64,000 nt of DNA from assembly GCA_000004985.1 (NCBI GenBank), contig GG738916.1. One strand, written 5' to 3'. Within the stretch, counting starts at the first letter, position 1, and each line of letters opens with the position of its first letter. The position numbers were made by a program, and so were the translations under genes. Origin of the DNA: Naegleria gruberi. Its lineage: Eukaryota. The notes beneath the pieces are model-generated. The model ran no database searches and was not told the origin of the DNA. It worked only from the letters and a program-made list of their open reading frames with translations. Positions 52,076 through 62,829 of the stretch are shown piece after piece.

Positions 52076-53114
52076 TTAATAATTATCAATGTAGGCAGCT
52101 CTATCATTAGCTCTATTCAACCATCCTTGCAAGAATTTGTTATTGGCAGTTCCTGGTCTTCCCCAATACAAGTAATCTTGTCTGTGTCTTTCGTTTAATT
52201 GTCTGGCGAAAGCTTTTGGATCTTGTCCATTGTAACCACCAAATTCATTAAGGTATTGTCTTGATCTACCAGTACCAGAGTTGACAGCAATATCAGAACA
52301 GACATAGAAAGCAGGTTGTGGTAAGTTAGAACATCCTCCAGGTCCAAAATAATTTTCAGAATATAATTGAGCTGCACTTGATTTGTAAAGTGATGGATTT
52401 TGGTTATAGGCATAATAGCAAAAGTCAGCTGGATGACCAGAGAAACCATTATTAAATGGTGCAAAGAAGCCATTTCTATTATTCCAACATTCTCTGTAAA
52501 ATTTCAAAATTTCAGTTTTTCGAATACAATTGAAAAGAAACTTACGATGGAGTAACACCCATACATGTATAACCAATCTTTCCTTGGAATTCATTACCAG
52601 AATCACTTGCCCAATTTTGACATCTTCCTTCACTCTTGAATATTTCTGCCAATGTTTCAGCTGCCTTATCACCAGTCTTGCTGTCAGGTCCAGAATATGA
52701 TTCTTGACAGGCCATCTTTAAAAATTGAGCAGAAACCCATTGATTATCTCCAATACGAGCCCACTTGACACCATTAACATTACTAGTTTCGTATACAGTT
52801 ACTTGAGTTTCTGGTCCTAAAGTTTTAACAACTTGTCCACCAGGAGAAGTTCTAACATTCAATGCATTATCAACATTGGTACAACGAGTTTCAGGCCAGA
52901 ATGATTCACTATCAGACAATCCAGAAAAAGAGGATTTGGTCAATTGGTGTCTAATTTCTTGAACGATAGCTTTGGCCAATCTTCTTTCCAAGCTCAAGGC
53001 ATTCAAGCTGCTTGCAACCAACAGGACAGAAAACAACACGGTAGCAACAATGAGTGTGCTAGATTTCATTATTGTGTTATTTTTTTTGTGAGATGCTTTT
53101 TCGTTACTAGACAA
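52076..53114 (-). CDS. Secreted protein with a signal peptide, a bacterial-type SH3b domain, and a C-terminal Cys-containing lysozyme or cell-wall-hydrolase-like domain, two exons
   Basis: Signal peptide: MKSSTLIVATVLFSVLLVASS. SH3b-like domain: ALNVRTSPGGQVVKTLGPETQVTVYETSNVNGVKWARIGDNQWVSAQFL. Exon 1 ends ...GYTCMGVTPS at GTAAGT. The 52-nt intron ends CAG. Exon 2 continues ECWNNRNGFFAPFNNGFSGHPADFCYYAYN... and runs to the stop. The two overlapping supplied ORFs are the two exons of one gene. Confidence 0.6.
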
Positions 53115-53567
53115 CGCTGCATTCTTGATGATTCACCCACTTTCGTACATGTGATGAATTTAGCCAATTTACCCTTGAGAAATTATAATTATCTCTCTGA
53201 AGTTATTTTGAACCATTTATTTGCTTTCAAATATCACCAAGTTCAAATCAAAATAAATAGAAAAATATTGTAATAATGAAAACCTAAATTATTAAGGTAA
53301 TACACTCAAAAGTTCAGACTTTATCATCCAATACATTCTAAAACAAAGACCTGCAACTCTTTCAATATTTGCAACTGTTGTAATTGATTCAGTATTGCAG
53401 AATTATTATTGGTGGGTTGCAACACACAAATTCAGCACTGCACTGTTACATTCTTAATAAGGTTACGTTCTGAATATAATCTTGAAGCATTAAATTGTCA
53501 AAGATGAAATATTCAGCTAAATGCATCCTAAAAGTCTTTTCGTGCCCTTTTTCAAAAAATTAAAAAA

Positions 53568-55320
53568 ATGCTTTCTTTTTTACGCAAGGCTTTGACACAC
53601 AACAATAACAATAATAATAACAATAAGAATAACAATACTGATAACAATAATAATAATAATAGTGATAACAATCATTTTATTCCTAATGATATTTTAATAA
53701 TAATATTTCAATTTCTTAATCAACAAGATTATATAAAAATATCATTTGTTTGTAGATATTGGAGATTTGTTGTTCAACAACCATTCCGAAAGGAATTTAC
53801 AAATTTTATTTTAAACTCTTCATATTCAATAGTTTATTGTACATTTATTATTAATGCATTTGAGTTTTTTAAATTCTTTTCTTCCATAACATTATAACAC
53901 TGTACCTGAATCAACATTTAAAACTCTGCTTTCTTCAATGAAATTACAAAGTTTATTTATTGATTCTTGTGTTGTTAAAAATAATATACCATTCAATTCT
54001 GTAAAACAATCTAATATAACTGAATTAGGATTAAATTGTAAAATGAAAAAGAAAGATTTACGTGCTTTATTTATTGTAATTCCAAATTTGAAACATTTAA
54101 GTTTAGGAATGGTAGTAACCGAATGTTTAATTAACACAGAATCATTTCTGAGTACACATTGTCATAAATTAGAAACACTCCATTTACAATTATTACCTGA
54201 AAATCAAAAAAAAATTGTAAAATTATTACATGGAATATTTAATCCATCAACAACAATATCCAATCTCATTGATATTAGAATATTTGTAACAGATAATAAT
54301 CCAACAAGTAATAGAAAATTAAATAATTTTACATTTAATTTTAATTCATTTCCAAATTTAAAATATTTATTTCTTGATATTACCTATATTTATACATTAG
54401 AATCAATTAGTAATGTATTAAATTCAAATAATATTTCAAAATTACAAGAATTTGGATTTGGAACTATTAGAAAAGCTATTGAAAAATTACAATTTAATTC
54501 GAGTGAAAATTTACAAAATTTAAAAAAATTATTTTTAAATAGAACAGAAATGATGACAAATATTGATAATCTTCCTTCATTAGAATTATTATATATAGAT
54601 GAATATGCAAAAAAACATTATTCCGCTACAAAATATTCAAAACCATGGAATTTAGCATCTAATGTGAAAATGCCATCTCTAAAATATTTACATTTAAATC
54701 TTTTTAATGAAACTCATTTACCTGATCGATTAAATGTGGAACCATTTAAAAATATTAAATATTTTTATTTTGAATCTGAATATAATATTGATTTATCAGA
54801 ATTGAGTAAATTAAATTTAGAAATATTAATTCTTAAAATTTCTGAAGAATATAATAAGAATATACTTCATCACATTTCTAAAATATCAACATTGAGAGAT
54901 TTAACATTTAGTAATCCTATTAGTGAAATTGATTTGAAATTACTTTGTAAATTACCAAATTTAGAATATCTGAATATTAGATTGGAATTTTATAGTGAAA
55001 CATCTTTTACTTTTAATTCACTAACTACACTCTCAATTCATTCAAAAAATTTGAAAGGATTAAATTTCTTTCAAATATCAAATTTACCAAAATTTAAAAC
55101 TTTACTAATTCGTAATCCTTATGATAATAACTATACATGGTGGTTGCAACCATTATTTCCAAATTTACAAATAATTAAAGCAAGTACTGACAGTTTTGGA
55201 ATATTTTTAACATCTCAATATAATGATGATATGAATTTTGGTGAGTATGAAGTTTCACAAAGAGCAGCAAATCATTTCCAAAATGAAAACGTATGGCTCT
55301 TTCCAAAAAAATTTATTTAA
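53568..55320 (+). pseudogene. F-box/LRR gene, copy A of a tandem pair. It is disrupted by a small deletion that creates a stop after codon 109; the ORF resumes at 53938.
   Basis: About 95% identical to copy B (59373..61145). Near 53880, copy A reads ttataacactg where copy B reads ttatttttccataatactg. This gives a TAA in frame. The poly-N tract at the N-terminus differs in length between the copies. Confidence 0.55.
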
Positions 55321-56031
55321 TATTAAAGCTCTGTATCAGAGGTTTCTCCTTGGTCACAGTTGATTTTTTAGAAGGATCTCCTTCAGCCAATATCTTTGGT
55401 TTCAAATGGTGAATTCAAGCAAGCCAATGCTGAGAAGGCCAAAGTTGACAATGATTATGTTTGTAAACATTTCAAATCCTATTTTTCAAAAAATTCAAAT
55501 AAAAAGTTGGTACATCATCATAGTTGTTATTTATCATCATTATAAAAGCCTCTTGGATGGTTCAAGAGATGCTGAATTCAAATGTTATAGAGATTGAACA
55601 GAATATTGTTGTACATTATATTTATTGTACCCAAGAAGGAACTTTTGGAATAAAGGACAGTTCCTTCAAGTTTACCAATTCAAATGCCTTTCATTTGGAA
55701 TAAGCCAAGCTCCCAGGAACTCACCAAGATTATGAAAAAACTGGTAACCAAGTGGAGACAACAAGGTATTATTTTGTTCCTAAAATTCAGAAAGAAAAGG
55801 GTGTCTTTACTCCCTGACTCAAACTGAAGCAATTTAGACTTCAAACGTAATATTTCCATCATTTGCAAGCCTAAGAACTGAAAAAGGATAAGGAATTGCT
55901 TTAGTGTTGAGAAATGAAGGAGAATTTTGTGAAGAATTAAGACAGGCCAAAATTAAATCCTTACAAGTCTGATTTCTAACTTGGAAAATTTATTTATTTA
56001 TTGATTGGCCCATGGTTTTACCTCATTTCCA

Positions 56032-58504
56032 TTATTTTCTGTTTACTCTCAACCAATAATCGATAATAACTTTCAAGAAATTATTGCATGGTATATTTTC
56101 TTGACAAGATAATTGGATTTTTTGTAAATAATCAAGAGTTAAATTATTTGAGCAAAATATCTTGAAATACTCAACTAGCTCTCTACAATCATTATTATTT
56201 TGTGAAACTGAAGCTAAATTTAGTAATATAATAAATTCAGTATCATTAATGGAATATAATTTTTCAACAATCAAGATACAGACATGTTTAACAATCCATG
56301 TAATATCCAATTGTTGTGCAATGATTAAAATACCAACCAAATCATTCAATTTAAGGTAATTGAACTCATATCCATAACATAATTTACATATGATTTGTAA
56401 TATTGTATTAATTTTAGCTGAATTATTGAACAAATCAATAATCCAATGATCTGATACCATCATTTCAATGAATTCATACAAGTCAACCACATTATTTTCA
56501 TTATTTTTAAATAGAATATTTAAAACTGAACTATGAACGGATAGAATTGATTTATGTAATTGCAATAATTCATTTTTATCCTTATTAATAATTACATGAA
56601 TATCACTATTACTTTCATCATTATATAATAATTTTAATGATTCAGTTACATTTTTGGCAATATTTTCAAGATTATCAATTTTATAATTAATTTGTTTAAA
56701 TGGTTGTTTAACATTATTAATTTTATCTTGAATAATTTCGAATAATGGATCTGATTTCAATAAAGTTGCATTTTCTTTAATAAATGCAAGACACTTATTT
56801 GCCAACAATAGCAAAATACTATTTTTAGCTTGTTTTAAAATATTTAAAGAAAGATAATTATTAACTATTCGTAAAATCCTCATAATGTTATCTACATTCA
56901 TTCTATTTGAAATGTCATTAAATAACAATAATTTAATTTCATGCTTGATATCATTAATATCATTTAATATAAATAGACAAGTTACTAAATTTAATTCTAA
57001 TTCTCCAAATGAAATGAAATTAATAAATTTATCATAATTACTAAATAAATCATCTATATTTAAACAATTTAAATCAATAATTGCGTTTTTAATTAAATAA
57101 TATAAAACTTTTTGGTCATTCTCATTTAAATGTTCAATTATATCATTTTTAATTAAATTATAAAAATCATTTGAAATATTTTTTAATAAATTTAAATCTA
57201 AATAAAAATTAGAATTAATTTCATAATTGAACTTAAAATTATCAGTTACCATAATATCATTAATCTTGAGACTATTCTCATTATCTGTTTCATGAATAAA
57301 AATAGTAAAATTTTTACCACAACAAATTTGAATTTCATCACCTTCCTTAATAGTAAATGGTAATTCAATTAATTTTAGTTCATTGGCTGATTTATTAGCA
57401 TATCCTAATTCGCCAAATTCATTAGATCCAAATGAATAGAACTTTTGGTCTACTGTTTGCAAAACACTGTGGAAGGTACCACTTTCCATATTAATAATAT
57501 TATCCATATTTGCTTGTTTAGAATTATAGTCAATATATTTGCATTCATTATTATATAACGATAAAATTTGATATTCATTCAATATTAATTGATCATAATT
57601 TTTCTCAAATTTAAACTCATTATAATTATTATGTAATTTAATTACTTTTTTAGGATTGTAATAATCTGCCAAGCCATAATCAATTAAAGTATAATCTAGA
57701 ATTTACAATAGAAGAATCATTAAAAATAATGAAACTAGTTCTTCCATTACATTTAATATCCTTAATATCTTCAATATTCTTATTAACTAATTTGGTAACA
57801 TTCATAAAATTATTTAAGGTAAAATAATCTTCAACATGTAATTTACCATTTACAATACTTTCAATTACAAATGGTTGGAATGATTGTGAATATTCATTCA
57901 TTCCACAAACATACAATTCATTTTCAAATGTTGTGAAAAATGTCAAATGAAATGTTACAAATATTTTGTTTACTTTTAACTTTTCTAAATTTGTATTTTG
58001 TAATAAATTAACGGCTACATCATTTGATTTTTTAGCAATGATAGCCAATTGTCCATGTTCATTATTACCAATACCAAATATGGAATTTAATTTAGATAAA
58101 AATACAACATGTTCTTTACCAATCGCAAAATCAATAATTTTGTCACTAGTATTTAAATTATTAAATTTAATCAATGTAGGAATATTAGAAATATTATTAA
58201 TAAATGAACAATTTCCCATTTTGTAAACATATCCCTTACGCGTAAGAAATATGCACAATTGATCTTGACTTTTAAATTTAATAATCTTATCATTAATTAA
58301 ATAATTTTGTAAATAATCAATTTTATCAAAACATGTATCATTTAATTTTGTAACAGTAATAATATCACTTTGTTTCTTCCAGAATCCATCTCCGCATCCG
58401 TAAACAAATTGTGATTTAGAAGAATTAATACCGAAAGCAGTGTTATTAGGTTCTGTTTCGTCGTCCACTACTTGATCAACATGGTGAATGGTGAATTGAT
58501 TCAT
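56032..58504 (-). CDS. RCC1-like repeat plus BTB/POZ domain protein. It is split into two ORFs (58504..57680 and 57672..56032) by a stop or frameshift. Coding is extremely AT-rich.
   Basis: RCC1-type blades: YGCGDGFW, FGIGNNEHGQLA, FGSNEFGELGY. A C-terminal BTB-like block: DLYEFIEMMVSDHWIIDLFNNSAKINTILQIICKLCYGYEF...LIIAQQLDI. The two ORFs are 7 nt apart and in different frames. Confidence 0.55.
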
Positions 58505-59372
58505 TTTTTTTTATAGAGTGGTCTCTCGGTTGTTATTGATACAAGAGACATTAATAAACTTGTACACCTTTTATTTTGTTATAGATTGTTACAACAAATA
58601 TTGTGCTTACTCAGCATTGCATTCATTGGTTTTGTCTAGCTAGATCGGCGGAAATGAAATCTCATTCGTGTGATTGATGTGAGAGATGTTACGCGCCAAA
58701 ATTTCTACACCAAAAAATAAGCAAAGCCACTTTTTCGAACTCTTATTTGAAAATCCATTAAGGAAATTAAACTCTCAGTACTTTCAAGAAATACCTCTAC
58801 TCATCATCATTGGTATTTAATTCAATCAACATAAATCAGCATCAATTTGGAATATTTCAATTAGAGTAGCTGGGATACATCTCACCAAAAGTAATAAGAG
58901 CAATATTGTGTGATGGTGTTTCTTCTTGGAATGAAGAAAGTTGCCAACCTCGGAAATATCAAACATTATCATTAAGCTGTAATTCAACATCACATTATAT
59001 TTATTTTTATATTAATAGTAATACTTGTTCATTAGGAATTTCTTCAACTAATTAATATATTTTCATCATGAATTCCAAAAACATTGTATGATTATTAGGG
59101 ATGTCTAATCTAATATCACCATCAAGAGAGTTGGATTATTTGTATTCATCGAGTTGTGGAATTTTACTTCATCATACCTTATCATCAGCAAGCTCACTTC
59201 AGATCATTAAGGTAAATATCTTAATGGTCATCATCAACCAGTTGCAGATTAAAACTGTGATTTAATGTCTCAATTAAGTTGATTGCTATGTTTGGAAAAT
59301 ACACGAACGATTCAATATTTCAATTTTTAAAAAGGAAGGAAGATTCTTCATGACTTTCAAAAAATTAAAAAA

Positions 59373-61145
59373 ATGCTTTCTTTTTTGCACAAGGCTTTGA
59401 CACACAACAATAACAAGAATAACAATAATAATACTAATAATACTAATAACAATACTGATAACAATAATAATAGTGATAACAATAATTTTATTCCCAATGA
59501 TATTTTAATAATAATATTTCAATTTCTCAATCAACAAGATTATATAAAAATATCATTTGTTTGTAGATATTGGAGATTTGTTGTTCAACAACCATTCCGA
59601 AAGGAATTTACAAATTATATTTTAAACTCTTCATATTCAATAGTTTATTGTACATTTATTATTAATGCATTTGAGTTTTTTAAATTCTTTTCTTCCATAA
59701 CATTATTTTTCCATAATACTGTACCTGAATCAACATTTAAAGCTCTACTTTCTTCAATGAAATTACAAAGTTTATTTATTGATTCTTGTGTTGCTAAAAA
59801 TAATATACCATTCAATTCTATAAAACAATCTAATATAACTGAATTAGGATTAAATTGTAAAATGAAAAAGAAAGATTTACGTGCTTTATTTATTGCACTT
59901 CCAAATTTGAAACATTTAAGTTTAGGAACGGTAGTAACAGAATGTTTAATTAGCACGGAATTATTTCTGAGTACACATTGTCATAAATTAGAAACACTCC
60001 ATTTACAATTATTACCTGAAAATCAAAAAAAAATTGTAAAATTATTAAATGGAATATTTAATCCATCAACAACAACAATATCCAATCTCATTGATATTAG
60101 AATATTTGTAAAAGAATATTATACAACAAGTAATAGAAAATTACATAATTTTACATTTAATTTTAATTCATTTCCAAATTTAAAATATTTATTTCTTGAT
60201 ATTACCTATATTTATACATTAGAATCAATTAGCAATGTATTAAATTCAAATAATATTTCAAAATTACAAGAATTTGGATTTGGAACTATTAGAAAAGCTA
60301 TTGAAAAATTACAATTTAATTCGAGTGAAAATTTACAAAATTTAAAAAAATTATTTTTAAATAGAACAGAAATGATGACAAATATTGATAATCTTCCTTC
60401 ATTAGAATTATTATATATAGATGAATATGCAAAAAAACATTATTCCGCTACAAAATATTCAAAACCATGGAATTTAGCATCTAATGTGAAAATGCCATCT
60501 CTAAAATATTTACATTTAAATCTTTTTAATGAAACTCATTTACCTGATCGATTAAATGTGGAATCATTTAAAAATATTAAATATTTTTATTTTGAATCAG
60601 AATATAATATTGATTTATCAGAATTGAGTAAATTAAATTTAGAAATATTAATTCTTAACATTTCTTTAAAATATAATAAGAATATATTTCATCACATTTC
60701 TAAAATATCAACATTGAGAGATTTAACATTTAGTAATCCTATTAGTGAAATTGATTTGAAATTACTTTGTAAATTACCAAATTTAGAATATCTTTATATT
60801 ACATTGGAATTTTATAGTGAAACATTTTTTACTTTTAATTCACTAACTACACTTTCAATTCATTCAGATAATTTGAAAGAATTAAATTTCTTTCAAATAT
60901 CAAATTTACCAAAATTGAAAACTTTACTAATTCGTAATCCTTTTGATAATAACCATACATGGTGGTTGCAACAATTGTTTCCAAATTTACAAATAATTAA
61001 TGCAAGTACTAACAGTATAGGAATATTTTCAACATCATCTCAATATAATGATGGTATGAATTTTGGTGAGTATGAAGTTTCACAAAGAGCAGCAAATTAT
61101 TTACAAAATGAATATGTATGGCTCTTTCCAAAAAAATTTATTTAA
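59373..61145 (+). CDS. F-box/LRR protein, intact copy B of the tandem pair, 590 aa
   Basis: F-box: IPNDILIIIFQFLNQQDYIKISFVCRYWRFVVQQPF. L-rich repeats follow (LKHLSLG, LETLHLQ, LKYLFLD, LEYLYITLEF). The N-terminus is poly-N. Confidence 0.7.
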   Translation: MLSFLHKALTHNNNKNNNNNTNNTNNNTDNNNNSDNNNFIPNDILIIIFQFLNQQDYIKISFVCRYWRFVVQQPFRKEFTNYILNSSYSIVYCTFIINAFEFFKFFSSITLFFHNTVPESTFKALLSSMKLQSLFIDSCVAKNNIPFNSIKQSNITELGLNCKMKKKDLRALFIALPNLKHLSLGTVVTECLISTELFLSTHCHKLETLHLQLLPENQKKIVKLLNGIFNPSTTTISNLIDIRIFVKEYYTTSNRKLHNFTFNFNSFPNLKYLFLDITYIYTLESISNVLNSNNISKLQEFGFGTIRKAIEKLQFNSSENLQNLKKLFLNRTEMMTNIDNLPSLELLYIDEYAKKHYSATKYSKPWNLASNVKMPSLKYLHLNLFNETHLPDRLNVESFKNIKYFYFESEYNIDLSELSKLNLEILILNISLKYNKNIFHHISKISTLRDLTFSNPISEIDLKLLCKLPNLEYLYITLEFYSETFFTFNSLTTLSIHSDNLKELNFFQISNLPKLKTLLIRNPFDNNHTWWLQQLFPNLQIINASTNSIGIFSTSSQYNDGMNFGEYEVSQRAANYLQNEYVWLFPKKFI

Positions 61146-61282
61146 CATTAAAGCTCTGTATCAGAAGTTTCTCCTTGGTCAAATCTGAATAGTGAATTCA
61201 AGTAAGGCCAAAGTTGACAATGTTCAATGAATAATGTTTGTAAACATTTCAAATCCTATTTTCAAAAAATTCAAATAAAAAA

Positions 61283-62829
61283 ATGTCAAGATTAACTTTT
61301 CCGTTACTTCTTGCTACATTGATAATCGCTTTCGTTTTGGTGTCATCAGCATCATTATCGGATCGGGTTAATGCCTTGACTCCACTCATAAAAACATCAA
61401 AATTATTCTCCATCAAACAACAGAATAATAACAAGCAATTATTTATTACTGCTACAATTTATCCTAATTTTAAAATTGTTCATGGAGTGAAGGATTTAAA
61501 ATTTGGTTTGGCTACTATTGAATATAATGATCAGTTACATGCACAAGGATTTGATACATTGGTTTTAGAGACGAGACAATCTACAAGTTTGGTGGAAGAC
61601 TTTGCTATTGCTCAGGGGGCTGGATATTTGGAAGGCTATTTGACAATGCAGAGAATTTACAATCATTTTGTGAATATTAATAGTGTATCGTGGTGGAATG
61701 CTAAGGAGAATAGAACTTTGGGAATGTCAAGTAATATTCGTCAATTTTTCAAAGATCAAAANACATGGATTTTACAACAAGTGAGCCAACACATGAATGG
61801 AACAACAGAAGAGGATTTATATTGGCNNNNNNNNNNNNNNNNNNNNNNNNNNNNNNNNNNNNNNNNNNNNNNNNNNACTGATATTATTTCAGTCATACCG
61901 TTGGGTGGGTATTTAGTGCCTTGACAAGAATGATGAAGACATACACTCTCAATTTTGCAAATCCACTCACAAAGTCTCGCACAGTGACATTTTCGAGTTA
62001 TCCTGGATCATTAGGCAGTAATGATGACTATTATCAAACTGATGGTGGTCTTGTTGTTATCGAGACAACCATTGGCATTTTGAATAATACTCTCTACGAT
62101 AATACTCATCCTCAATCATTGTTGAGTTGGTTTAGAGTTGTCTTGGCCAATAGAATGGCTACAAGTGGCAGAGAATGGTTTGAAGTTTTTAGTATTAATA
62201 ATGGAGGAACCTATAATAATGAGTGGATGATTCTCGATGTGAAAAAGTTTATTCCTGGTCAAGCTCAATTGACAAAGGATTTATTCTGGGTAATTGAACA
62301 AATACCTGGAACAGTGGTGGGATCAGATCAAACAAATCTTCTCTCCACTCGCGGATACTTTGCATCTTATAATGTTCCTTTCTATCCTTCCATTTATGAA
62401 AAAACTGGATATGCAGAATATGTGAAGAAATTTCCAGAGACTTATCATTATATGAGTTATGATAAGTGTGCCAGATCTGAAATATTCAGAAGAGATCAAC
62501 ATTTAGTCAAAGATCTGCCATCCATGCAACGAATTATGCAATATGATAATTATCATGATGAATTTTCATTCGGAAATCCTGACTGGGTAATCTCAGCAAG
62601 AGACGATTTAGCTCCAAATGTTCCAAATGGACAAAAGAGTTGTGGAGGTGGATATGACTGTAAAATATCATCTATTTCTAAATGGAATTTTGTATTTTTC
62701 AGAAGTGGACCAGCTCACCAATTTACACCTGTTTTCAAGTTTGAGAATCAATGTGGACCTCAATACTCACATGTTGGATTGCCTTTGGAGTGGAACTTCC
62801 CTTGGATTCAATTGGATAGCAGAGTTTAA
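61283..62829 (+). CDS. Phospholipase B-like (PLBD/LAMA family) protein, interrupted by a 50-N assembly gap
   Basis: Signal-like N-terminus: FPLLLATLIIAFVLVSSAS. Conserved PLB-like blocks: AQGAGYLEGYLT, NNEWMILD, SYNVPFYPSIYEKTGY. The two supplied ORFs, 61283..61924 and 61921..62829, are one gene read across the gap. Confidence 0.75.
61827..61876. other. Assembly gap: a run of 50 N, plus an isolated N at 61762
   Basis: A literal N run in the sequence. Confidence 0.99.

Follow-up and report, generated by a model that had tools for sequence, protein, structure and literature searches.

Substrate receptors of the FBXL class (SKP2, FBXL; in plants TIR1, COI1 and MAX2/D3) have an F-box of about 40 residues at the N terminus and, after it, a long solenoid of leucine-rich repeats (LRRs). 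F-box families in plants and nematodes evolve by birth and death, with young local duplicates, fast divergence of the repeat domain and the disabling of one copy. In the human RCCX module, CYP21A2 and CYP21A1P are direct-repeat duplicates a few kb apart, with an 8-bp deletion in the pseudogene and gene conversion between the two. Segmental duplications mediated by microhomology or short repeats have edges that coincide with a short direct repeat, and their classical outcome is a head-to-tail pair joined by one hybrid repeat. Here we describe a locus that can be set beside each of these, in a 64,000-nucleotide (nt) stretch of contig GG738916.1 of Naegleria gruberi (GenBank assembly GCA_000004985.1), which we refer to as the window. 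An intronless F-box/LRR cassette of 1.93–1.96 kb is present twice on the same strand, as copy A and copy B, on either side of a gene that encodes an RCC1 propeller and a BTB domain (RCC1-BTB), and immediately upstream of a phospholipase-B-like (PLB-like) gene in the case of copy B. We consider it probable that the pair arose through a young, local duplication at the DNA level, including the steps proposed below for its parentage, its breakpoints, later sequence exchange and the disabling of copy A. The pair is real and, taken as a whole, an ordinary young duplicate and pseudogene with a few unusual details.

Local alignment matched copy A (53550–55505) to copy B (59355–61281) as one block with common flanks on both sides. 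Of the 1905 aligned bases 1835 were identical, with 70 mismatches (96.3%), and identity fell to about 93% once indel columns were counted; a preliminary description of this DNA, made by a model from the letters and a list of open reading frames (ORFs), had put it at about 95% over about 1.95 kb, which is a fair figure. The alignment contained 15 small gap blocks under the gap settings used, and global alignment by MAFFT gave 73 substitutions and eight indel events. The same pair emerged independently from a repeat search of the window, as five collinear direct-repeat families with a spacing of 5777–5825 nt. No similarity was detected beyond the block edges by blastn at a word size of 9, so the edges are sharp. 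The shared upstream flank, previously given as about 20 bp, consists of 18 nt that are identical at 18 of 18 positions (53550–53567 and 59355–59372); the coding part is 96.3% identical and the 3′ flank 93% in aligned columns. The downstream flank had been described as about 190 bp, which fits copy A (185 nt) and overstates copy B (136–137 nt). The duplicated cassette comprises the 18-nt leader, the 590-codon F-box/LRR ORF and about 137–185 nt of 3′ flank.

The two copies are direct repeats about 5.8 kb apart, with the high identity and sharp boundaries of a tandem duplication, and they are not adjacent head to tail: 3,849 nt of unique sequence (55506–59354) separate them. The earlier reading of a recent tandem duplication holds for a young, same-strand duplication of a whole F-box/LRR unit around the RCC1-BTB gene and fails for head-to-tail arrangement, and the names “local dispersed” or “segmental” duplication describe it better. 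Runs of N occur only at 61762 and 61827–61876, so that no gap interrupts the sequence from copy A through the spacer to copy B, and the order is GH108/SH3-like gene (minus strand), copy A (plus), spacer with RCC1-BTB (minus), copy B (plus) and PLB-like gene (plus). The features of the locus are as follows.

53550–53567, plus strand: 5′ leader of copy A (R5); TTTCAAAAAATTAAAAAA adjoins the ATG, and the left edge of the A/B homology lies here.
53568–53897, plus strand: N-terminal ORF of copy A, 109 codons and TAA, containing the poly-Asn tract and the F-box.
53601–53672, plus strand: AAT/AAC poly-Asn microsatellite of copy A, found by TRF; its counterpart in copy B is 59404–59486.
53890–55320, plus strand: LRR-body frame of copy A, +1 relative to the F-box ORF, with its first ATG at 53938 (460 residues) and no further stop.
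53892–53898, plus strand: site of the 8-nt deletion seen in the alignments, with the resulting TTA-TAA-C.
54412–54741 (copy B 60234–60563), plus strand: 330-nt tract free of A/B differences, a candidate gene-conversion tract.
55321–55505, plus strand: 3′ flank of copy A, with homology to the DNA that separates the copy B stop codon from PLB, ending in R3 (55484–55505, TTTCAAAAAATTCAAATAAAAA).
55506–59354, no strand: unique spacer between the copies, 3.85 kb, without similarity to the rest of the window; GC is about 30–33% where it is non-coding.
56032–58504, minus strand: gene for an RCC1 propeller and BTB domain in two ORFs in different frames (Pfam RCC1, RLD and BTB).
59355–59372, plus strand: 5′ leader of copy B (R5), identical to that of copy A.
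59373–61145, plus strand: copy B, an intact 590-codon F-box/LRR ORF (ORF list, Pfam and stop-codon statistics).
61146–61282, plus strand: intergenic 137 nt, both the 3′ flank of copy B and the 5′ region of PLB, ending in R3 (61260–61282, TTTCAAAAAATTCAAATAAAAAA) directly before the PLB ATG.
61283–62829, plus strand: phospholipase-B-like gene, with Pfam Phospholip_B in both parts and an assembly gap inside.

The lesion that separates the fates of the two copies lies a short distance beyond the F-box. Eight nucleotides present in copy B (59705–59712) are absent from copy A between 53893 and 53894, which gives a TAA at 53895–53897 after 109 codons, as had been read from the sequence before and as both the alignments and the ORFs confirm. 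Across this site copy B reads ...SSITLFFHNTVPESTF; copy A encodes ...SSITL and a stop, and then NTVPESTF in the +1 frame. Because copy B reads through in one frame and in the canonical order, F-box and then LRR, the change is taken as a deletion in A from a B-like ancestral state. Both parts of the disrupted gene are recognizable: residues 38–72 of copy A scored 35.1 bits against Pfam F-box-like (cut-off 24.3) and 33.7 bits against F-box (cut-off 20.5), LRR_4 reached a sub-threshold 17.8 bits, and the LRR body is 91.6% identical in amino acids to residues 114–590 of copy B by tblastn. When the eight nucleotides are put back, copy A contains no other stop, and the remaining coding indels are all multiples of three within trinucleotide runs (AAT/AAC, CAA and CAT). 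The N-terminal poly-Asn tract does differ in length between the copies, as described earlier (53601–53672 against 59404–59486), by 6 nt in the MAFFT alignment and with clustered substitutions. Relative to its intact paralogue copy A thus bears a disabling lesion. It would be a recently disabled duplicate, in which translation from its own ATG would yield an F-box-only stub and the LRR body would stay open and out of frame.

Copy B is most likely a functional gene. Its DNA is 41% A and 38% T, and a random frame of this composition would meet a stop every 11 codons or so; the chance of 590 stop-free codons is (1−0.092)^590, or about 2e-25, and the other two frames of the same DNA hold 56 and 87 stops. 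As the length is far beyond chance, the ORF represents a real gene, or one lost only very recently. Residues 40–74 scored 32.4 bits against Pfam F-box-like (cut-off 24.3) and 31.4 bits against F-box (cut-off 20.5), so that both copies pass the curated profile thresholds for the F-box, and LRR_4 was found at 24.6 bits, under its cut-off of 27. An exhaustive phmmer search with residues 40–590 against 1.84 billion representative proteins identified no homologue and only three weak matches, all of them generic LRR proteins (E 4.5e-5 to 1e-3) aligned to residues 372–490. No F-box/LRR relatives were found in IMG/VR, in JGI metagenomes by protein pattern or by exact 23-mer search, and no paralogue beyond A and B was found in the window at the DNA level or in protein databases. 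The single-sequence AlphaFold (AF2) model of copy B had a mean predicted local distance difference test score (pLDDT) of 50, rising to 70–86 at residues 380–490, and this low-confidence model alternates strand and helix as in an LRR solenoid. When we compared the model with the PDB using Foldseek, which for a model this poor speaks to fold class at most, all top matches were LRR solenoids with template modelling (TM) scores of 0.2–0.43, including the F-box/LRR receptors COI1 (3ogk_B) and D3/MAX2 over about 560–600 columns with TM scores of 0.3–0.43. On the strength of the Pfam F-box, the sub-threshold LRR_4 and the exclusively LRR matches from phmmer and Foldseek, we accept F-box/LRR as the predicted architecture of the protein. 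By its domains the product would serve as the substrate receptor in an SCF (Skp1-Cullin-F-box) ubiquitin ligase.

The predicted protein resembles the FBXL receptors in its order of domains, an N-terminal F-box of about 40 residues and then a long putative LRR solenoid, and differs from them in that no sequence homologue is detectable, its similarity being to LRRs generically and its LRR Pfam score below the cut-off. It also has an N-terminal poly-Asn tract that those receptors lack, and the fold match comes from a low-confidence model. It appears to fit the FBXL class by architecture and to be an orphan by sequence. Likewise, the pair recalls the birth and death of F-box families in being a young local duplicate with fast divergence of the repeat domain (ratio of non-synonymous to synonymous divergence, dN/dS, 0.9) and one disabled copy; unlike those families, it comprises two detectable copies and no family, as judged from the DNA of the window and the protein databases.

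The divergence between the copies bears on when the frameshift occurred. By the Nei-Gojobori method dS was 0.055 and dN 0.034, giving a dN/dS of 0.62 overall, 0.90 in the LRR body past the frameshift and 0.20 in the N-terminal 110 codons; as pairwise values, the 0.62–0.90 cover both lineages jointly and not one copy. Differences between A/T and G/C were symmetrical, with the A/T state in copy A at 26 sites and in copy B at 32 (P = 0.51), and an asymmetric AT decay of copy A, which we considered, is rejected by this polarity test. Copy A shows no extra stop, frameshift or AT excess of its own. Approximately 4.8% of random substitutions in the ORF would create a stop, and none of the 64 coding differences does so (P ~0.04 if neutral), which is mildly unexpected. 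With no other lesion, with in-frame indels and with neither AT excess nor nonsense substitutions, the frameshift is probably recent relative to the duplication, a first hit, and some selection, at the least, seems to have acted on A as well as B for the greater part of their history as duplicates. The earlier statement that copy A is already decaying is borne out by the one disabling lesion and overstated otherwise, as no decay is seen past the frameshift.

Divergence is not evenly spread along the block. No difference between the copies occurs in the 330 nt at 54412–54741; the longest gap between differences is 331 nt (permutation P ~1e-4), and a single difference falls in 54322–54742, a span of 420 nt that none of 20000 permutations reached. 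The surrounding coding sequence differs at 3–7%, and within the tract synonymous and non-synonymous sites are equally unchanged. The identity tract is thus longer than expected from the divergence, and because it is significantly long and leaves both classes of site alike unchanged, the best explanation from the pattern of differences appears to be gene conversion between the copies. Such exchange would have continued after the duplication and left the 330-nt tract in a pair that is otherwise about 5% divergent. A pseudogene with an 8-nt frameshift and a patchy identity that fits conversion are shared with CYP21A2 and CYP21A1P, an analogy of mechanism only: the organism and the gene are unrelated, and conversion here is inferred from one identical tract.

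The duplication edges themselves coincide with a short repeat. In the 64 kb the 12-mer TTTCAAAAAATT has four exact occurrences, each at a unit end (0.54 occurrences expected; none of 100 shuffles gave at least four), namely at the first base of each copy (53550 and 59355) and 22–23 nt before the end of each (55484 and 61260). The F-box leader with its ATG reads TTTCAAAAAATT+AAAAAAATG and the PLB leader with its ATG reads TTTCAAAAAATT+CAAAT+AAAAAAATG, so that the two are identical at 21 of 21 bases with one 5-nt insertion. Among 171 leader pairs in the window this pair is the best (score 17; next 14.5), and only three of 5983 random 40-nt windows reach its score. The A/B homology starts at the first base of the leader motif and stops within the last few bases of the downstream motif; copy A keeps that downstream motif (...CAAATAAAAA) and then continues into unrelated sequence (GTTGG...). 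Searches at the four junctions and around the island formed by the two copies and the RCC1-BTB gene identified no target-site duplications of at least 5 nt. We also considered the 12-mer as a general promoter element and rejected this, since allowing one mismatch gave 10 occurrences against 10.8 expected, none of them at other gene starts.

Because the homology edges coincide with the near-identical F-box and PLB leaders, we favor breakpoints that would have been set by the short leader repeat, whether by ectopic recombination, by template switching or by an excision followed by re-integration through the motif. The locus is like short-repeat-mediated segmental duplications in that the block edges coincide with a short direct repeat. 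It differs in that each copy here has both repeats and a spacer lies between the copies, where the classical outcome is head to tail with one hybrid repeat. Edges at a repeated leader-plus-ATG motif offer a testable hint on the choice of breakpoints in a genome with very short intergenic regions.

The downstream end of the block bears on which copy is the parent. The 3′ flanks are identical at 119 of 128 aligned positions (93%), apart from indels, which comprise extra blocks of 42 and 14 nt in A and of 8 nt in B. The 42-nt block found only in A (55350–55405 against 61175–61190) could reflect a repeat-mediated deletion in B, not an insertion in A; if so, the flank of B, which is the upstream region of PLB, is the derived state at this block. 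Homology stops 1–2 nt before the PLB ATG at 61283, in keeping with the earlier observation that the copy B flank abuts this start codon, and the last 26 nt of the flank are a near-copy of the F-box gene's own leader. Copy A carries a diverged copy of the whole interval from the B stop codon to the PLB ATG; the PLB leader motif is part of it, and PLB coding sequence is not. The preliminary description took this piece for a relic of the PLB promoter. Copy A does hold a diverged copy of the interval between B and PLB, but the interval is equally the 3′ untranslated region of the F-box gene and its last 26 nt resemble the F-box leader, so that a promoter relic, which takes B as the parent and the 137-nt stretch as a promoter, is plausible but unproven.

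We propose that copy B would be parental and copy A derived, in which case A would carry a segment of the B–PLB intergenic region. This direction is more likely than the reverse, with a good though not commanding probability, because the reverse would part PLB from its upstream region and because A is the disabled copy. Searches through the PLB gene and through metagenomes found no orthologous locus by which the duplication could be polarized: the nearest PLB relatives are at most 50% identical, and their contigs represent paralogous or distant loci without F-box neighbors. An unlikely but serious alternative is that A, or a lost ancestor, was the parent and that the cassette was inserted before the PLB start codon, leaving PLB to use the cassette motif as its leader. 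The end of homology 1–2 nt before the PLB ATG is compatible with such an insertion, and a PLB leader that nearly copies the F-box leader would be expected if the motif belongs to the cassette; the 3′ flank of A is also the longer one, and the 42-nt block absent from B is bounded in A by TTGGTCA / TTGGTTTCA repeats. Such an insertion would, however, have moved PLB's own promoter 1.9 kb away, the putative parent A is the disabled copy, and no target-site duplication surrounds B.

Returning to a young local duplication from B to A, several observations weigh against parts of this account. The direction is unproven, as the searches found neither an outgroup nor a second strain, and the alternative of a B inserted before PLB stands beside it. 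A run of A ahead of the ATG is a generic feature of leaders in this genome, so that about nine of the 21 shared leader bases are generic, and the score of the next-best leader pair limits the weight of the leader match. Recombination between two flanking motifs predicts adjacent copies and one hybrid motif, and what is seen is four motifs and a 3.85-kb spacer; because the copies are non-adjacent, an extra step or another route, such as a circular intermediate or template switching, is needed. With a dN/dS of about 0.9 in the LRR body, purifying selection on copy B since the duplication is undemonstrated, and a consensus artefact of the assembly, arising between repeats this alike, might in principle account for the identical tract. 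Finally, neither copy is in the public gene set. Exact look-up of the copy B protein in public protein collections returned no entry, and from this and from the absence of a strong match in the exhaustive search we take the copy B gene to be unannotated in N. gruberi.

An RNA-mediated origin, in which copy A would be a retrocopy of a copy B mRNA and the block a transcript starting 18 nt before the ATG and polyadenylated near the PLB ATG, is doubtful, although several features recommend it. The edges are transcript-like, with an 18-nt leader at one end and CAAATAAAAA at the other, where a run of A stands beside an AATAAA-like motif; a random breakpoint would rarely fall within 20 nt of an ATG in an intergenic region of 868 nt; copy A is not adjacent to its source; and since the gene is intronless, the lack of intron loss is uninformative rather than negative. 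Nevertheless, the hallmarks of a processed retrocopy, a poly(A) tail and target-site duplications, were both lacking: neither junction of copy A has a target-site duplication, and there is no tail past five A's, which the genomic copy B also has. A position on the same strand 5.8 kb away is more typical of a local DNA duplication, the repeat of the 5′ leader at the 3′ end would go unexplained, and the 3′ flank of copy A has 56 nt that are missing in B. We also considered and rejected an element of the long terminal repeat type, as the repeats begin with TTTC and end with AAAAA where such elements have TG...CA termini, no target-site duplication is present around the island, and the internal region encodes RCC1-BTB in place of gag/pol.

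That copy A is not dead is comparably doubtful. Under this alternative it would give a 109-residue F-box-only product and a 460-residue LRR-only product from the ATG at 53938, or a +1 ribosomal shift would restore the full length. The F-box-only product could titrate Skp1, all other coding indels are in frame, and the downstream frame of 477 codons is stop-free despite about 50 substitutions relative to B (P ~0.07–0.27, depending on the share assigned to the A lineage). A one-base skip at the stop (53892–53898) would rejoin the frames exactly, with a product equal to B minus Phe-Phe-His; this rejoining at TTA-TAA-C is arithmetic only (8 + 1 = 9 nt). The in-frame indels, however, sit in trinucleotide repeats, which are expected to slip by 3 nt regardless, the dN/dS of 0.9 in the LRR body gives no sign of constraint, and we know of no programmed +1 frameshifting in Naegleria.

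On a different scale, the F-box/LRR unit might be a self-contained cassette, with copies of a leader-plus-ATG motif of 21–26 nt as its ends, that spreads by recombination at similar A-rich gene leaders and lands before host start codons, which we regard as improbable. If true, the cassette shares or donates its leader, here to the PLB-like gene, and genes in a compact protist genome would have been duplicated by an unusual route that a motif guides.

It is very unlikely that the pair is an artefact of assembly or sequencing, whether by divergent haplotypes or collapsed repeats placed in series or by consensus errors behind the 8-nt gap and the 330-nt tract. The scaffold is a gapped draft of the Sanger era with a run of N about 550 nt downstream of B, and mis-assignment of reads can produce identical tracts between near-identical repeats. 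Against this, unique sequence borders each copy on its left and its right, all of it in a single stretch free of gaps; the substitution divergence of 3.7%, with many indels, exceeds the 1.5% by which the window differs from an environmental N. gruberi-like contig; and the loss of 8 nt in non-homopolymer sequence is atypical of base-calling error.

The composition of the locus is unusual. Coding GC in the three island genes (the two F-box/LRR copies and RCC1-BTB) is 0.21–0.24 and GC at third codon positions (GC3) 0.11–0.17, compared with 0.33–0.37 and 0.24–0.34 in 17 other genes of the window; GC at four-fold sites (GC4) is about 0.10 compared with 0.17–0.37 in the neighbors, a lower value that lies little beyond the host range. 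Between the island genes the GC of the DNA is 0.28–0.33, close to the 0.31 of non-ORF DNA elsewhere, and much of the island bias comes from proteins rich in Asn, Lys, Ile and Phe. Across 53550–62000 of the window the island genes are more AT-rich than their own intergenic DNA. All three are near-orphans with domains of the adaptor type of cullin-RING ubiquitin ligases (F-box and BTB).

Mimivirids have expanded families of F-box, BTB and repeat proteins. We nevertheless consider it very unlikely that the island is a remnant of foreign DNA such as a giant virus, with the duplication in or with the element: to the low coding GC, GC3 and GC4, the near-orphan status of all three genes and these family expansions may be added that mimivirid codon usage is reported to exaggerate Naegleria's own preferences (PMC11702301), yet no relatives of either protein were found in IMG/VR or among the 1.84 billion representative proteins, intergenic GC is host-like, two ordinary neighboring genes are already at a GC4 of 0.17, the bias stems largely from amino-acid composition, no viral hallmark genes lie nearby, and endogenous giant-virus capsid genes were not reported in N. 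gruberi (Bellas et al. 2023, as cited in PMC11702301).

The points above routine in this pair are only its edges at a leader motif, its conversion tract, its orphan and unannotated gene and its AT-rich composition. As a textbook young duplicate and pseudogene it changes nothing fundamental; its modest interest lies in showing, cleanly and in a form that can be dated, how a heterolobosean gene was duplicated, underwent probable gene conversion and was inactivated by a first hit. Gene-family turnover has been little studied in this group. It also has value for re-annotation, which concerns two unannotated F-box/LRR ORFs (590 codons; 109 + 460 codons), a split RCC1-BTB gene and a gap-truncated PLB-like gene.

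The RCC1-BTB gene in the spacer consists of an ORF of 274 residues (57680–58504) and one of 546 residues (56032–57672), and is annotated as two N. gruberi genes, the 274-residue EFC37655 / NAEGRDRAFT_81883 and a 491-residue “predicted protein” for the BTB part. The RCC1 propeller is divided between the ORFs, and both frames are open together only across about 57700–57680. The sole relative found, an RCC1 and BTB protein of 757 residues from a EukProt transcriptome, aligns to both ORFs at 23% identity. Because this relative spans both and the propeller is split between them, they probably form one gene, whose frames would be parted at about 57680–57706 by a frameshift or by a short intron missing from the gene models; several GT..AG candidate introns, for example one of 91 nt (57706–57616), exist at the frame change. 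Elsewhere in the spacer, a reverse-transcriptase-like peptide at 55600–55870 (...YQFKCLSFGISQAPR... / ...TKIMKKLVTKWRQQGI...) was considered and set aside, with no Pfam match and no PDB match at E up to 10, and coding relics at 55480–56060 had no support from Pfam or the PDB. The flanks of the two copies gave no Rfam match to a non-coding RNA.

In the PLB-like gene, residues 78–182 of the part upstream of the gap match positions 2–94 of the Pfam Phospholip_B profile, and the second ORF matches positions 192–486 (7e-103). The N-terminal ORF, of 213 codons, has a signal-peptide-like start and lies in a different apparent frame. The annotation of the gene covers its C-terminal 299 residues only, because of the assembly gap. 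On the other side of the locus, a gene resembling cell-wall hydrolases of bacterial or phage type lies upstream of and divergent from copy A (52076–53114, minus strand), with sub- to near-threshold Pfam matches to SH3_3, Glyco_hydro_108 and PG_binding_3 and a hydrophobic, signal-like N-terminus. It is made up of two overlapping ORFs in different frames (52542–53114 and 52076–52672), which implies an intron or a frameshift, and by its domain matches it is possibly a lysozyme of bacterial origin in Naegleria.

Three long ORFs of the window match proteins of N. gruberi NEG-M exactly (EFC37606, EFC37613 and EFC37655), and the three entries belong to a single contig of 245,038 bp. The GC content of the window is 31–38% and its ORFs are long and mostly intron-free, in agreement with the 33% GC and 1.7 exons per gene given for the N. 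gruberi genome in Table 2 of PMC8296547. In an environmental metagenome (ENA ERZ929261, PRJEB11402), one contig matches 48118–50789 of the window at 98.5% identity over 2.68 kb, which indicates a close relative of NEG-M in that sample. The 808-residue protein encoded by this contig (1–2679) falls into one 90%-identity cluster with the 808-residue EFC37613 of the window, and a PLB paralogue at 50% identity comes from that metagenome as well.

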